Assembly: GCA_030615855.1 (NCBI GenBank)
Contig: JAUWYL010000006.1
Coordinates: 1 to 54,532 of the forward strand
Origin: a bacterium
GTDB taxonomy: Bacteria > UBP18 > UBA7526
Reading direction: 5' to 3'
DNA: 54,532 nucleotides
Of the stretch, positions 19,224-53,829 are shown in pieces. The translations under genes and the position numbers were made by a program. The number at the start of each line of letters is the position of its first letter. Positions within the stretch are counted from its first letter, which is position 1. The notes under the pieces were generated by a model. That model did no database searches. It was not told where the DNA came from and saw nothing but the letters and a program-made list of their open reading frames with translations.

Positions 19224-19868
19224 TCAGCATCTGTCTGCTATCTCTTGGGCATTCTCAAAGAGGGTTTTTATCTCCTTTTCAGAGAGCCCGGCGACCCTGG
19301 CTACCTTTAGCGCCTCTTTCTTGGTTATTAGGTCAGTGTAATGATGGGCATCGGTACAGAGGACCAGTTTGGCTCCGGTCTCTCTGGCCATCTTCGCCAC
19401 GTGGCCATTGGCTAATGAATGACCCTTTCTCGTGGAGATCTCCAGGCATATCCCCTTCTTCGCTGCTAAGAGGGCATCCTCTTTTGTAATGTGGCCTGGA
19501 TGGGTGAGGATATCGATATCACTCTCCAAGGCAGTACGGTTCGTTCCCGGCTCCACAGGCTCAACAATGGTCTCTCCGTGAACCAGGACTAACTTCGCTC
19601 CCAATCTCCTGGCTTCTTTTACTAAAGAAGGAATGAGTTTTGGAGGAACATGGCTTATCTCAATTCCCGAAATGGCCTTTATCTTTTTCACTTTGTTGAG
19701 ATCGTTACAGACTTTTACCACCCGGGGAATGATGAAATCCATGTTGGATGAATCGGCATGATCTGTGATGGCGATGGCCTTATATCCCTTTATCTCTGCC
19801 CGATGGATGAGTTCTGAGGGAATTAATGCTCCATCACTAAATAGGGTGTGGGTATGAAGATCGATCAT
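19224..19868 (-). CDS. PHP-domain phosphoesterase (histidinol-phosphatase-like)
   Basis: MIDLHTHTLFSDG, AITDH, VHGETIVEPV, LTHPG, TDAH. Confidence 0.85.
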   Translation of the reverse strand: MIDLHTHTLFSDGALIPSELIHRAEIKGYKAIAITDHADSSNMDFIIPRVVKVCNDLNKVKKIKAISGIEISHVPPKLIPSLVKEARRLGAKLVLVHGETIVEPVEPGTNRTALESDIDILTHPGHITKEDALLAAKKGICLEISTRKGHSLANGHVAKMARETGAKLVLCTDAHHYTDLITKKEALKVARVAGLSEKEIKTLFENAQEIADRC

Positions 19869-19900
19869 AACTCCTCATGGCGCCCCCGGCAGGATTTTCA

Positions 19901-20016
19901 CCCCGCACCATAACTCATTCCGCCTCCCCGGAGCGATTCGAACGCTCGACCTTCCCCTTAGGAGGGGGACGCTCTGTCCAGCTGAGCTACGGGGAGATAT
20001 TGATAATGGTGCGGGG
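19901..20016. mobile_element. Miniature element with 11-bp terminal inverted repeats carrying a tRNA
   Basis: CCCCGCACCAT (19901-19911) and ATGGTGCGGGG (20006-20016) enclose the inner tRNA; mobility is inferred. Confidence 0.6.
19923..19996 (-). tRNA. tRNA-Arg(CCT), intact, CCA not encoded, nested inside the disrupted tRNA-Arg
   Basis: CTCCCCG TA GCTC AGCTGGACA GAGC G TCCCC CTCCTAA GGGGA AGGTC GAGCG TTCGAAT CGCTC CGGGGAG G; all four stems pair. Confidence 0.92.
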
Positions 20017-20056
20017 CCTGCCCCATACCAATCCCTTTGGGATGTTACGGGGCAGG
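20017..20056. repeat. 40-bp hairpin element CCTGCCCC...GGGGCAGG
   Basis: cctgccccataccaatccctttgggatgttacggggcagg. Confidence 0.75.
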
Positions 20057-20186
20057 CCTGCGACTTAGGAGGATCCTGCTCTATCCAACTGAGCTACGGG
20101 GGCGTCGCTCACTTCCGTTCGCTCCTCAGTGGGAGAACTTAAGAAAGAGATACGAATAAGAAAAAATTAATATGAGGATTTGCCCA

Positions 20187-20702
20187 CTAATATTGAATTA
20201 AGGAGAAAATTTTATAGGGTTTCAGTTTCTCTCGACCTTTTAGGAAGGTGAGTTCGATTAAGAAGGTGGCCTCTACAATCTCCCCTTTCAATTTCTTGAC
20301 AAGATCAATGGCTGCTTTGACCGTTCCTCCAGTGGCTAAGAGGTCATCGGCAATGAGCACCTGATCCCCAGGTTTTATAGCATCAATGTGGATCTCTAAG
20401 GCATCCTTTCCGTATTCTAATTCATACTCTGTCCGGTGTGTCTTATAAGGGAGCTTTCCTGCCTTTCTAATGGGAATAACCCCTGCTTTTAGTTTGTAGG
20501 CCAGGGCAGCGCCCATAATGAATCCTCTGGCCTCTACCCCCACAACGACATCTATCTTCTTGTTCTTGTAGCGGGCAGCCATTAAGTCAATGACCCTTCT
20601 AAAGGACGGCCCGTCCTTTAGTAAAGTAGTGATATCCTTAAAGACCACTCCCTTCTTGGGAAAGTCTTTAATATCTCTTATCAATCTCTTTGCTATCTTC
20701 AT
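20187..20702 (-). CDS. apt: Adenine phosphoribosyltransferase
   Basis: [43 protein letters not shown]. Confidence 0.96.
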
Positions 20703-20732
20703 CTATTCCTCCCAGGCGCAGATTTTAGTTAC

Positions 20733-20841
20733 GAAGGGTTAAGGAGGGTAAGGGGGTAAACCCTCTTTACCCTTTCAACCCTCTTCGCCCCTTTACTATA
20801 AATCAGTGTTCATCCGTGTTGTTATCCGTGTCTATCCGTGT
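20733..20841. repeat. Inverted 9-nt repeat array plus ATCCGTG repeats
   Basis: aagggttaaggagggtaagggggtaaa / ccctctttaccctttcaaccctctt; then atccgtg three times. Confidence 0.6.
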
Positions 20842-20843
20842 TC

Positions 20844-20917
20844 TGGAGCGGGTGAAGGGAATCGAACCCTCGTATTCAGCTTGGGAAGCTGATATTCTAC
20901 CATTGAATCACACCCGC
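20844..20917 (-). tRNA. tRNA-Gly(CCC)
   Basis: GCGGGTG TG ATTC AATGGTA GAAT A TCAGC TTCCCAA GCTGA ATAC GAGGG TTCGATT CCCTT CACCCGC T CCA. Confidence 0.95.
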
Positions 20918-20984
20918 ATTACAAAGGTGCGGGGTGCCATTCCTGCCTGTCGACAGGCAGGGAATCACGTCCGCCCAATAAAAT

Positions 20985-21013
20985 ATTATACTTCAATAGG
21001 CAAAAAAAGTCAA
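20985..21013 (-). promoter_or_regulatory. Sigma70 promoter upstream of tRNA-Gly
   Basis: Minus strand TTGACT-17 bp-TATAAT. Confidence 0.75.
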
Positions 21014-21065
21014 CCCCGCTCCTTTTATTTTTAAAGCATCACTTTGTAGTAGAAAGGTGCGGGGT
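21014..21065. repeat. Cargo-less copy of the ACCCCGC(A/T)CC...GGTGCGGGGT element
   Basis: accccgctccttt...aaaggtgcggggt; same ends as 19901-20016. Confidence 0.65.
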
Positions 21066-22471
21066 CAATTAGTTAATAACTCCTGAACGAATTTAAAGGC
21101 CTCTTTTTTCGTCTTAATTTTTTCCTCGGCCTGGACCTCGCTGAGTGCTTCCAGGATCTTTCCTATCTTCGGTCCCGGCGAGAGTTTAAACCTTTTCATA
21201 ATCTCATTCCCATTGACTAACCTCTTAGGCTTGACAATGAACTTTTTCTCATAGTAATCCCCGAGCATCTCTTCTACTACTTCCCTATGTCTCTTAATCA
21301 TCCGAGGAGTAGCCAGAGGGCCACAAGCAGCCAATCTATCCCCATAGGATAGGATCAGGGTCTCAATCCCCTCTTCCTTACAGTCCCGGAAGAATCTGAA
21401 GATGGCCCGATTGGTCACCTTGGGAACTTCGCTCAAATTGCCTGGTCGCATATGATGAAGGATCTCTCTCTTTACAGTTTTAATCGCTTTCCGGGAGAGC
21501 CTCAGCCTTTTCCCAATCTCCTCTGCCATCTCCACTCCCTTCTCTTCATGGCCGATGAACCTCATTCTTCCTTCCGGAGTAATGCTCTGTGTCTGGGGTT
21601 TTCCTAAATCGTGAAGAAGAGTAGCTAACTTCAAAAGGGTAATCCTGGGTTGCTTATCCGCCACCTCCTCTCTCAAGTGCTTCCCGATCTTCTTATAAAA
21701 TTTTGGAAAGAGTCTTTTTAAACCCTCCAGTATCTTTTCAGTGTGCTCTAAGGTCTCGAGGGAATGTTTCCAGACATCGAGATGATGGAAGCCCTCCTGG
21801 TCTGTTTTTCTTAATGCTTCTATCTCTGGAATGATCTGGGTAAGGAGCTTTAATTCATCCAATTCTCTTATGAACCTGTGGCTTTCCTTCAGGGCCAAGA
21901 TCCCGAAGAGCTCTTCTTTTATTCTCTCCCCTGAGACCTTCTTAAGTAGCGCGGCTTTCTGTAAGATCAATTTTCTTGTTTTTCTCTCGATCTTAAAATT
22001 CAAGAGGGCTCGGAAGCGAATGCTGCGCAGAAGACGCAAAGGGTCATCAGCAAATGCTTCTTCGCTGACCATTCTAATTGTTCTCTTTCGAATGTCCTCT
22101 CTTCCTTTACAGGGATCAATGACCTTTGAGAGAATGGGTTCTCCGAGGTCTAAGGCTAGGGCATTGATGGTAAAGTCTCTTTTCTTTAGATCCTCCCCTA
22201 TTGATCTACCACGCATTCTGGTAAAGTCGTAGGTCAGACCATTCTTCTTGTCAATGACCCTGTTCGTCTGGTATCTATCGTTTAAGAGAAAGAAGGCGCC
22301 CTTTATCTTCTCAGCAAATTCCTTTACAAAATCTGTAAGTCTGCCAGCAAGGACGAAGTCTAGATCCTTATTCTCCCTTTTTAAGATTAAATCTCTTAAG
22401 TATCCACCGACGAGATAGATCTTTTCTTTTCTCTTCTTAGCTAAAGAATTTAGTAATTTAAAGGTCTTCAT
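21065..22471 (-). CDS. CCA tRNA nucleotidyltransferase / poly(A) polymerase family protein with HD domain
   Basis: YLVGGYLRD, DLDF, DLKKRDFTINALA, DDPLRLLR, SGERI, HHLDVWKHS, LLHDLGKP. Confidence 0.88.
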   Translation of the reverse strand: MKTFKLLNSLAKKRKEKIYLVGGYLRDLILKRENKDLDFVLAGRLTDFVKEFAEKIKGAFFLLNDRYQTNRVIDKKNGLTYDFTRMRGRSIGEDLKKRDFTINALALDLGEPILSKVIDPCKGREDIRKRTIRMVSEEAFADDPLRLLRSIRFRALLNFKIERKTRKLILQKAALLKKVSGERIKEELFGILALKESHRFIRELDELKLLTQIIPEIEALRKTDQEGFHHLDVWKHSLETLEHTEKILEGLKRLFPKFYKKIGKHLREEVADKQPRITLLKLATLLHDLGKPQTQSITPEGRMRFIGHEEKGVEMAEEIGKRLRLSRKAIKTVKREILHHMRPGNLSEVPKVTNRAIFRFFRDCKEEGIETLILSYGDRLAACGPLATPRMIKRHREVVEEMLGDYYEKKFIVKPKRLVNGNEIMKRFKLSPGPKIGKILEALSEVQAEEKIKTKKEAFKFVQELLTN

Positions 22472-42132: not shown

Positions 42133-42644
42133 TAGTACCCTGTCATTTTGGTGAAGAGGAGGAATTTTCCTAAGAGGTTGTTGGCGCGCTTATAAAGTTT
42201 CTTCATCTCTTTCAGCCTCTGGTTGTAGAATTTGATCTTTCTTTTTTCTTCACTGTTATTTGAATTTCCTTTAGCATGCTGGATTAGTTCCTCACTCTTC
42301 TGGATTATATCTCTTATCTCGTCCATTCTCCATCTTGCAGAAAGAGTAATTCTATTTCTTACTATCTTTGTCAGATTGGATTCTGCCTCATAGAAGTTCC
42401 TTCGCGACCCTTTCATCCAGACCCTTTTCACCGCTCCCTTCTCCTCTAATTCCCGGATGTTAATGCTGGCACTTCCCTTACTGATGACCAACCTTTTGAC
42501 CATATCATCAAGCGAAAGTGGTTTTTCAGAAAGGTAAAGTAAAGCGTATAATTGTCCCATTACCTTGCTGAACCCTAAGGTAGAACTTAGATGACCTATT
42601 CCCTCAATAAAGTTATGGTATGCTTTATCAAGATTCTTATTCAT
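42132..42644 (-). CDS. GbsR/MarR-family transcriptional regulator
   Basis: GQLYALLYLSEKPLSLDDM, ISKGSASINIREL, GSRRNFY; ATG at 42644. Confidence 0.85.
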   Translation of the reverse strand: MNKNLDKAYHNFIEGIGHLSSTLGFSKVMGQLYALLYLSEKPLSLDDMVKRLVISKGSASINIRELEEKGAVKRVWMKGSRRNFYEAESNLTKIVRNRITLSARWRMDEIRDIIQKSEELIQHAKGNSNNSEEKRKIKFYNQRLKEMKKLYKRANNLLGKFLLFTKMTGY

Positions 42645-52973: not shown

Positions 52974-53723
52974 TCATTTTACATTTTTACTTGTATCTTT
53001 GATGACCCCCAAGGGGAATTCAGGGAGCATCTTCTCCTCCACCCACCTGAGGGCCTCTTGGGAAGTTACTCCCCAGCCAGTAGGGCACATGGATAGTACC
53101 TCCACTAAAGAGAACCCCCTATTCTCGAGTTGAACCTGGAATGCTTTCTTGATGGCTTTCTTTGCCTTTAATATATTCTTTGGACCGTTGACCGCTACTC
53201 GCTCAACGTAGGCTGTTCCATCAAGCTGGGCCAGGGCCTCGGATATCTTTATGGGATAGCCAGCCGTTTTTGGCTCCCGACCAGAAGGGGTAGTTAAGGT
53301 CTTCTGGCCAGTCAATGTGGTAGGAGCCATCTGCCCTCCCGTCATGCCATAGACGGCATTATTGACAAAGATCACGGTTATATTCTCTCCCCGATTGGCA
53401 GCGTGAACCGTCTCTGCTGTTCCGATGGCTGCTAAGTCCCCATCTCCCTGATAGGTAAAGACTATCCTATCCGGTAGGACTCTCTTTATTCCCGTAGCTA
53501 CTGCCGGAGGTCGGCCATGGGCGGCCTCAGTGGTATCGAATTTCCAGTACTGGTAAGCCAAAACAGCACAGCCTACCGGTGCCACAGCAATTGTTTTCTC
53601 TCTTACCTCCAACTCATCGATTACCTCATAGATTAACCTATGAACGATGCCATGGCCACACCCTGGGCAGTAGATAGTCGGTACATCCTGCATGCTCTCT
53701 GGCCGACCAAATATTCGTTTCAC
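52974..53723 (-). CDS. 2-oxoacid:ferredoxin oxidoreductase beta (TPP-binding) subunit
   Basis: YCPGCGHG, AAHGR, YQGDGDL, NNAVYGMTGGQMAPTT. Confidence 0.93.
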   Translation of the reverse strand: MKRIFGRPESMQDVPTIYCPGCGHGIVHRLIYEVIDELEVREKTIAVAPVGCAVLAYQYWKFDTTEAAHGRPPAVATGIKRVLPDRIVFTYQGDGDLAAIGTAETVHAANRGENITVIFVNNAVYGMTGGQMAPTTLTGQKTLTTPSGREPKTAGYPIKISEALAQLDGTAYVERVAVNGPKNILKAKKAIKKAFQVQLENRGFSLVEVLSMCPTGWGVTSQEALRWVEEKMLPEFPLGVIKDTSKNVK

Positions 53724-53829
53724 CCCGCCCCTCCTTTAGTAGCCAAGCAAATGATGTCTATAAAGAAAAAAGAACTCATCATTTCAAGCCTTTCAATCCC
53801 AAGGTCATTAATTCCATGAGGGGCGGGGT

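Follow-up and report, generated by a model that had tools for sequence, protein, structure and literature searches.

A hairpin-ended cassette carrying tRNA-Arg(CCT) has probably overwritten the resident tRNA-Arg(CCT) gene of a UBP18 bacterium

A 54,532-nt stretch of bacterial DNA (contig JAUWYL010000006.1 of assembly GCA_030615855.1; hereafter the window) holds one tRNA-Arg(CCT) gene inside the remains of another. Judging from the sequence, this arrangement was probably produced by a ~120-bp hairpin-ended mobile cassette that carried a second tRNA-Arg(CCT) as cargo, killed the resident gene via its T-loop and belongs to a family that overwrites tRNA genes. The genome holding the window (G000; 1.375 Mb, 45 contigs, a metagenome-type assembly, 93.6% complete) is one of only six species genomes of its phylum in our collection (G000-G005), among which G001 and G002 belong to the same genus and G003 to a sister genus. 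G000 was taken as a bacterium because its tRNAs are clustered and ARAGORN finds a tRNA-Tyr of 85 nt, which we take to be the bacterial type with a long variable arm.

Structure of the interrupted gene

Both halves of the outer tRNA-Arg(CCT) lie on the minus strand and span 226 nt overall (20103-19878). The 5' fragment (20057..20103, minus strand), delimited by sequence reading, comprises tRNA positions 1-39 followed by TC and one T-stem arm, in the order acceptor GCCCCCG, D arm, GGATC, loop CTCCTAA, G, TC and GCAGG. The 3' remnant (19878..19896, minus strand) continues with the T-loop bases AAT, T-stem CCTGC, acceptor CGGGGGC, G73 and CCA. The acceptor and T stems, the CCT anticodon and the encoded CCA that an earlier, sequence-only reading had attributed to the outer gene are all present, and the two T-stem arms, which are 5/5 complementary, lie 163 nt apart (20056-19894), in agreement with its estimate of a T-loop split by ~160 bp. 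The 5' fragment is identical to the intact tRNA of G003 at 38/40 bases (alignment by eye). Relative to this orthologue, the outer gene lacks 7 nt of the anticodon stem and variable loop, between CTCCTAAG and TC, as had been estimated. Neither ARAGORN nor Rfam called a tRNA in the outer fragments, and in-silico removal of the insert at 19897-20056 or at 204 other boundary pairs restored an ARAGORN tRNA in none. This agrees with the prediction that the outer gene is non-functional: excision that restores no tRNA fits a dead or decayed gene and is not evidence against nesting. The gene must once have worked, since its T-stem arms pair while differing from those of G003 by compensatory changes.

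The whole insert of 163 nt contains no protein gene. Within it, a 5' arm CCCCGCACCAT (20006..20016, minus strand) and a 3' arm ATGGTGCGGGG (19901..19911, minus strand) form a perfect 11-bp inverted repeat delimiting a unit of 116 bp from arm to arm; these are the repeats recognised by the sequence-only reading, one base away from where it implied them. The cassette, 116-120 bp long, is thus short and non-coding with terminal inverted repeats. Beyond the arms, its end next to the 5' fragment is the junction tetranucleotide CCTG (20053..20056, minus strand; CAGG on the plus strand), a CRRG-type end that reads CCTG in G001 and CCCG in G002, and CRRG/CYYG was also found at the matching end of other nested cassettes. 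At the opposite end, TGAA (19897..19900, minus strand; TTCA on the plus strand) is a TTCA-type end that replaces T-loop positions 54-57, and TTCA precedes CCCCGCACC in 8/24 family pairs of G000 and in all nested cassettes examined. On the plus strand, the cassette layout reads TTCA, CCCCGCACC, cargo, GGTGCGGGG, CRRG. The cassette border also carries a secondary 36-nt hairpin (20017..20052, a placement ambiguous by 4 nt as CCCC is repeated) that is found in G000 only and not at that spot in G001 or G002; relatives of this hairpin occur at G000:C27:26248-26280 (33 nt, 91%) and in G002:C29.

Between the arms, framed by a 9-nt leader and an 11-nt trailer, lies an intact tRNA-Arg(CCT) (19923..19996, minus strand) called by ARAGORN (call span 19922-19996) and by Rfam (RF00005, 63.6 bits, threshold 29). 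As previously described, it is fully paired and does not encode CCA. Its acceptor stem is CTCCCCG/CGGGGAG, and its acceptor, anticodon and T stems are all unlike those of the outer gene. Whether G000 has another gene of this kind had been raised as a check: this is the sole Arg(cct) among 40 ARAGORN calls, one of which is a spurious His call within a coding region, and from its sequence it is probably the working tRNA-Arg(CCT) of the genome. AGG codons are indeed common: across the long open frames they account for 35% of all Arg codons and occur at 22 per 1000 codons. Furthermore, the inner T-stem is GAGCG/CGCTC in the window and GAGTG/CACTC in G001 and in a contig from a public sequencing run (X2, see below), a difference of a single pair (window positions 19934 and 19944) whose compensatory nature indicates that the cargo tRNA is under selection. 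The missing CCA had also been taken as a sign of foreign origin. The absence itself stands, but it is a weak sign, as 6/38 tRNAs of G000 lack CCA (3/6 of them cassette-borne cargo genes) and 4/11 cargo tRNAs of the phylum encode it. Folding of the locus gave -116.1 kcal/mol (z -5.0), with 0/200 shuffles equal or better. At gathering thresholds, Rfam returned just two tRNA matches in the window and no ribozyme at the locus.

Order of events at the locus

The same locus in related genomes, a comparison proposed by the sequence-only reading, holds the uninterrupted form: in G003, a 77-nt tRNA-Arg(CCT) of the outer type, with CCA, sits between the same apt-like and PHP genes that flank the window locus. 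G001 and G002 carry the arm-tRNA-arm unit at 97-98% identity and have kept the outer 3' remnant; their outer 5' part is gone and other small hairpins have been added beside the arm. Since cassette and remnant are common to G000, G001 and G002, the insertion predates the split of these three species. These alignments support an ancestral outer-type gene and a cassette that would be a later, shared insertion. Together with the genome-wide repeat family formed by the arms, they uphold the earlier proposal of a small non-autonomous element that disrupted the resident tRNA-Arg(CCT) and at the same time supplied its substitute.

We also compared the window with public sequencing runs (X1, X2, X3 and X7). 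A contig built from X1 covers 19650-20350 with 0 differences. The junctions, across which the mapping of reads had been proposed as a check, are both spanned unchanged in this independent build, although X1 is possibly the source of this DNA. None of the runs listed as containing the stretch was an RNA run. The X2 contig comes from a different sample and carries a G001-like allele with the same compensatory T-stem pair. X3 and X7 hold parts of the stretch only, among them an X3 unitig that corresponds exactly to 19901-20017, at a depth of 49.5 compared to ~7.5 on its flanks (about six times).

The arms belong to a repeat family

The arm sequence CCCCGCACC occurs 55 times in the 1.375 Mb of G000, compared to ~4 expected by chance (hand estimate from base composition). 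There are 24 convergent pairs of the 8-mer arm CCCGCACC within 400 nt, the two members lying 21-372 nt apart, and a looser arm pattern gave 154 matches, mostly as tight pairs. The family consensus reads TTCA, CCCCGCACC, a T run and then, inward, ATTCA; both ends of the window cassette fit it. The arm 13-mer ACCCCGCACCTTT is present in 6-39 copies in each of the six phylum genomes (6/6) and in 0-2 copies in 35 other bacteria, while reversed controls gave 0-1. Some family copies are nested inside others. Exact 4-nt direct repeats such as TTCA, TGAA, TCAA, TTGA or CTCA flank 8/24 of the G000 pairs, which is what transposition would leave. No target-site duplication was found at the window cassette (TTCA vs CAGG, plus strand) or at any nested tRNA cassette examined.

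A related arrangement was seen at G004:C110:3800-3908, where a 37-nt hairpin unit, again with CCCGCA arms, is repeated in pure tandem up to the contig end. Single units like this 37-nt CCCGCA hairpin adjoin the Arg cassette in G001.

Nested tRNA genes recur within the phylum

The Arg(CCT) nesting is one of many cases and not a singularity. At least 10 further tRNA genes of the phylum have one of their cloverleaf loops split by a tRNA that has an identical anticodon and lies between repeats. Four of them came from scanning the five relatives for arm pairs spaced widely enough to hold a tRNA. In G004, tRNA-Lys(CTT) is split in the T-loop, and tRNA-Ser(TGA) and tRNA(CAT), Met, are split in the anticodon loop, each with a same-anticodon arm-flanked tRNA inside; the same holds for tRNA-Val(CAC) of G005, split in the anticodon loop. 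The tRNA-Val(CAC) of G004 has a plain hairpin in its D loop and a cassette with other arms (CCCCGTTAG) in its anticodon loop, and the insert that splits tRNA-Asn(GTT) of G002 consists of hairpins, a GIY-YIG gene and another tRNA-Asn(GTT). The Val, CAT and Lys tRNAs are uninterrupted in G000, which thus provides the empty sites. G000 has a cluster of its own at C35:109000-111400, where each of the genes for tRNA-Pro(tgg), His(gtg), Arg(tcg) and Leu(tag) is bounded by inverted repeats and nested in older remnants of a gene of the same kind, and where plain small hairpins occupy T and D loops of dead copies. Two older 5' fragments stand beside tRNA-Pro, and the sequence suggests three generations of this gene at one locus. 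Inverted repeats of at least 8 nt flank 6/38 tRNAs in G000; the other 32/38 have none.

Other irregularities were noted among the tRNA genes of these genomes. In G000, the anticodon loop of tRNA-Asn(GTT) is interrupted by a group I intron of 236 nt (G000:C44:40490-40800; L308 240-477, minus strand), matched by Rfam RF00028 at 81.9 bits (threshold 50), at a gene that in G002 is interrupted instead by the hairpins, GIY-YIG gene and replacement tRNA-Asn mentioned above. A tRNA-His(atg) with a 1001-nt intron, called at G000:C29:3085-4174 when ARAGORN allowed introns, lies inside a long coding frame and is a false call. No tRNA-Ser, tRNA-Ile(GAT) or tRNA-Ala(TGC) was found in G000; these genes probably lie on unassembled contigs, as a Ser cluster is present in relatives.

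Cassettes with the same ends in metagenomes

One scan of metagenome contigs for both 13-nt ends spaced 80-110 nt revealed 92 loci, 62 of which hold a tRNA between the arms, with 17 anticodons represented. The search for such cassettes at other sites and with other anticodons, recommended by the sequence-only reading, was thus productive in both the phylum (at least 10 more genes) and the metagenomes (62 tRNA cassettes). The tRNA is oriented one way in 32 of the 62 and the other way in 30. When the cassette was removed in silico, trying a range of boundaries, a tRNA spanning the junction was restored in 38/62, on the cargo's strand every time. In the restored T-loop cases, the anticodon is that of the cargo in 13/17, and the top call differs in the other 4. 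For restored anticodon-loop cases, the outer anticodon was identical in 0/21 and agreed in its first two letters in 11/21; these calls are unusable because the cut lies inside the anticodon, and we used a classification of the flanks instead. With the 37 other tRNAs of G000 as reference, and with one of 47 non-identical cases dropped for its short flank, the flanks best matched a G000 tRNA of the cargo's amino acid in 31/46, compared to 8.8 on average and never more than 16 when the labels were permuted (1000 trials). In contrast, 0/30 cargo-less cassettes sit in a restorable tRNA. The hosts must often be distant from the phylum, as their tRNAs differ strongly and mostly lack CCA.

To compare each cargo with the gene around it, the 32 T-loop cassettes were reduced to 27 non-identical ones with enough flank and then to 21 with a same-anticodon partner. 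In 17/21 the cargo resembled that of a different cassette more than the outer gene surrounding it, and the reverse was true in 4/21, a contrast that decay of the outer copies inflates; median identity between cargo and own outer gene was 0.68 over 50 nt. Even so, cassettes whose cargos are 92% identical sit in outer genes just 72-78% alike. The arm extensions covary, with 4.50/6 positions paired vs 2.96 for permuted partners and 30 distinct extensions in 44 cassettes, which argues for selection on the stem as such, be it as single-stranded DNA or within an RNA precursor.

For the inner tRNA-Arg of the window, the best full-length match among those listed was to gammaproteobacterial-type tRNAs (67/74), compared to ~76% (hand count) for the resident type of G003. 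Its 27-nt anticodon arm occurs at 120 or more genome loci, mostly in Gammaproteobacteria among the matches listed, and on 18 viral contigs. Among the listed matches, none at full length had the CT acceptor start or the arms. A donor or phage link for the inner tRNA was considered and dropped, the best outside match listed being this 67/74 one, without arms.

How the cassette might act and what might move it

All insertions have entered the T, anticodon or D loop of a tRNA gene whose anticodon is that of the cargo, and the cargo is co-oriented with its target. Target bases are lost: T-loop positions 54-57 are replaced, and anticodon-loop cuts fall after position 34 or 35. The junctions yielded no single insertion rule; a few bases of the target are missing, and the CRRG end is variable. 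Because the cargo shares the old gene's orientation, it is probably transcribed from the upstream signals of that gene. In the precursor, the G+C-rich arms would then form a stem that separates the inner cloverleaf from the dead halves around it, after which RNase P and 3' trimming could mature the inner tRNA and a CCA-adding enzyme could supply its CCA. We infer this RNA pathway as a whole, from transcription and arm pairing to maturation and CCA addition. Insertion would be tolerated because the cargo supplies the function destroyed. Once the outer copy has decayed, as it has here by a 7-nt deletion and in G001 and G002, where the whole 5' part is gone, the cassette could no longer be lost; that it is hard to lose, as proposed earlier, we likewise infer. 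The same-anticodon rule would be most simply explained by selection: as these small genomes carry single-copy tRNA genes, only insertion of a matching tRNA would be viable.

The leading candidate for the mover is a trans-acting small GIY-YIG nuclease of the UPF0213 type, which we regard as a lead and not as a demonstration. Each of the six phylum genomes has 1-7 small UPF0213-type GIY-YIG genes. At G000:C35:39165-39536, an arm pair of the family encloses a 101-aa GIY-YIG (UPF0213-like) open frame, a unit that could be the autonomous form of the family or a mere passenger. When the 1345 open frames located at most 2.5 kb from the 92 metagenome cassettes were clustered, they consisted of housekeeping neighbours (TsaD, SLOG, permease, ABC, MgtC) and one diverse GIY-YIG cluster at a median of 143 nt from the cassettes; no common enzyme emerged from this clustering. 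In NCBIfam, the small GIY-YIG proteins score below threshold for a group I intron endonuclease family. A Y1-like open frame lies 1.1 kb from a cassette in one metagenome lineage only, and no full-length relative with the same ends and a transposase turned up in G000. A broader proposal is that of an undescribed 'tRNA gene overwriter', in which cassettes recognise the single-stranded loops of folded tRNA genes and serially replace these genes across distant bacteria, perhaps driven by small structure-specific GIY-YIG (UPF0213) nucleases; the tRNA genes of these lineages would then evolve through successive replacements and not through descent. We consider the chances of this proposal evenly balanced.

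Several observations weigh against the mobile cassette proposed here. On the enzyme side, GIY-YIG genes are near 12/92 metagenome cassettes only and there is none in this cassette or window; no transposase or recombinase could be tied to the family; Y1/RAYT (PF01797) was found in 0/6 phylum genomes, while controls were positive in 6/14; and apart from the one GIY-YIG open frame, no arm pair of G000 encloses a long gene. Tetranucleotide ends raise a further difficulty, as the tRNA-bearing cassettes read TTCA/CRRG, do not share the direct repeats of cargo-less copies and have cost their targets a few bases. Insertion chemistry may therefore differ for tRNA cassettes. Several nested tRNAs of G000 have other arms (GTCCGATTGAGCC, TCCCGATTTTA, CCCCGCCCCATT), so recognition of one sequence cannot account for every case. 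G000 also has a tRNA-Arg(TCT), which might read AGG, so 'addiction' to this particular copy of the cassette is conjectural. Finally, the cargo tRNA-Lys of G004 is identical to its outer halves and 4/21 metagenome cargos are closest to their own outer gene, which allows for local copying or gene conversion.

Alternative explanations

The latter cases are the basis of an explanation by local origin, according to which the inner tRNA was copied in place, for instance by hairpin-mediated template switching after insertion of a plain hairpin in the T-loop, and then diverged or was gene-converted, with no transfer. The identity in G004 extends over 53 + 17 nt, and among the metagenome pairs there are several mosaics whose anticodon arms are the same. 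However, tRNA-Lys(CTT) is 100% identical across two genera, which makes the identity of inner and outer copies in G004 uninformative. At the window locus, the acceptor, anticodon and T stems of the two copies differ, yet the outer copy still matches G003 at 38/40, and the preference of 17/21 cargos for another cassette's cargo also goes against copying in place, as does the count of 0/30 for a plain hairpin inside an otherwise restorable tRNA. We therefore consider local origin unlikely. One could also dispense with a mobile element and regard the leader-trailer stems as part of normal RNA processing, with the remnants left by sloppy replacement via transformation and illegitimate recombination. 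The variable arms of the nested G000 tRNAs, the stem extensions that covary without being conserved in sequence and the transposase that was not found would all fit. Such a scenario is decidedly unlikely given that the same 13-nt ends surround 62 tRNA cargos and 30 non-tRNA inserts on diverse contigs, that they also bound cargo-less pairs, about 55 in each genome, with exact 4-nt direct repeats around 8/24, and that 32/38 tRNAs of G000 do without a flanking inverted repeat of 8 nt or more.

An intron-like insert, removed from RNA so that the outer tRNA is still used, comparable to archaeal introns at unusual positions, would account for helix-bounded insertions in loops and for the 38/62 outer genes that are whole after in-silico removal. 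This has little chance of being correct in a bacterial host, where the tRNA-splicing endonuclease PF01974 had no match in G000 (controls were positive in 4 archaea), for an outer copy that lacks T-loop positions 54-57, at a locus with no ribozyme match, and with outer copies that decay, here through the 7-nt deletion and in G001 and G002 through disappearance of their 5' part. That tRNA genes are classic integration sites, with partial tRNA copies as the usual scar, could point to leftovers of an integrase-type island with attL/attR tRNA duplications. We find this hardly credible, since a whole gene and the 5' and 3' fragments on either side of it fit into 226 nt, these fragments are complementary parts of a single tRNA, with neither an integrase nor a direct repeat of the tRNA end, and the architecture recurs for at least 22 anticodons in 105-135-nt units. 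A repeat-rich locus in a metagenome-type assembly of 45 contigs might, lastly, reflect misassembly of two alleles. However, cassette and remnant occur in three separate genomes, a public-run contig spans the stretch with 0 differences (although the run may be the source) and a different sample carries the sister allele. Three genomes and the X1 and X2 contigs with this arrangement make misassembly very unlikely, to the point of being negligible.

Relation to known systems

The mobile cassette that we favor shares features with several known systems. MITEs (miniature inverted-repeat transposable elements), repetitive extragenic palindromes (REP/REPIN) and Correia-type elements are short palindromic or inverted-repeat families without a transposase of their own. 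The cassette family is likewise short and transposase-less, has terminal inverted repeats, exists as dozens of copies in subfamilies that nest in one another, and has many copies with 4-nt flanking direct repeats as in MITEs. It differs in that the passenger is an apparently working tRNA gene exactly complementing the gene destroyed, and in that the tRNA cassettes have asymmetric ends and no target duplication; neither a parent insertion sequence nor a RAYT was found. Integrative elements and phages insert in tRNA genes, often in the T-arm, and restore them with a 3' (or 5') end that they bring along. The use of a tRNA gene as target, often at the T-arm, and the preservation of tRNA function are common to both, but the cassette brings a whole gene in ~120 bp, the resident is lost on both sides, there is no integrase or att duplication, and anticodon and D loops are also entered.

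Group I introns in bacterial tRNA genes and homing-endonuclease elements are selfish DNA inside essential genes. The cassette, too, lives in an essential RNA gene of a surviving host and sometimes has GIY-YIG genes attached, but it avoids harm by a spare gene instead of splicing, no ribozyme is found at the locus, and the gene that it interrupts is abandoned and decays. SegB of phage T4 is reportedly a free-standing GIY-YIG homing endonuclease in the phage tRNA gene cluster, where the region is replaced by gene conversion. Small GIY-YIG genes among tRNA genes and replacement of a tRNA region by a donor version recall the present case, whereas the T4 system has no nested remnants or hairpin arms, and a role of the nuclease in cassette movement is a candidate one. 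In archaea, introns occur at non-canonical positions of tRNA genes, and there are split tRNA genes whose parts are joined via G+C-rich complementary leaders. Inserts in T and anticodon loops and a G+C-rich helix beside tRNA parts are shared features; here, in contrast, the host is a bacterium without the splicing endonuclease, the insert is itself a tRNA gene and the outer halves are pseudogenes.

A full-text literature search, with subscription journals and supplements outside its scope, found no description of tRNA-in-tRNA nesting or of tRNA-replacing cassettes. The cassettes look like an undescribed class of self-complementing mobile elements that overwrite tRNA genes. Selfish DNA is known to reside harmlessly in essential genes by self-splicing (introns, inteins) or by rebuilding the end of the gene (tRNA-targeting islands). 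The locus and its relatives would represent a third route, namely to bring a spare copy of the gene. If correct, this would explain odd tRNA fragments beside tRNA genes in uncultured bacteria, and it would mean that tRNA genes could be exchanged horizontally one by one, making tRNA sequences poor descent markers in these groups. It would also provide a natural minimal 'addictive' element of ~120 bp and point to a DNA-insertion activity aimed at hairpin loops. Annotation pipelines would be affected as well, as they report the inner gene alone and miss the history that surrounds it.

Neighbouring genes and other features of the window

Upstream of the locus lies an apt-like phosphoribosyltransferase gene (20187..20702, minus strand; Pfam PF00156, E 1.1e-16), which is the neighbour in G001-G003 as well. 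Downstream, a PHP-domain protein gene (19224..19868, minus strand; Pfam PF02811, E 4.4e-12), also the neighbour in G002 and G003, has its start codon 9 nt past the outer CCA. The CCA-type enzyme earlier placed ~1 kb away corresponds to a gene at 21065-22471 with CCA-adding/poly(A) polymerase head, HD and tRNA_NucTran2_2 domains. A sigma-70-like promoter (TTGACT-17 nt-TATAAT, 11/12 matches; 20985..21013, minus strand) lies upstream of tRNA-Gly(CCC), and 19700-21200 holds no other promoter of this type. From its position, this promoter may also serve the downstream genes of the same strand by co-transcription.

Arms of the family occur near tRNA-Gly(CCC) too. A solo arm lies at window 20926-20934 (minus strand), 8 nt upstream of this gene, and a complete 50-nt arm pair with TTGA direct repeats lies just upstream, at window 21014-21064 (minus strand). 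The -35 box of the TTGACT/TATAAT promoter begins with the right-hand TTGA of that pair. Elsewhere in the window, the arm pattern matched at 42644, 49975, 50115 and 53723-53819, which includes one convergent pair 96 nt apart. Furthermore, a short motif (ACACGGATA / ACGCAGAT) is present in 3-4 tandem copies at window 20800-20843 and 3' of at least five other tRNA genes of G000; the tRNA genes with this tandem motif include Gly-ccc, Ala-cgc, Ala-ggc, Met and Glu-ctc.

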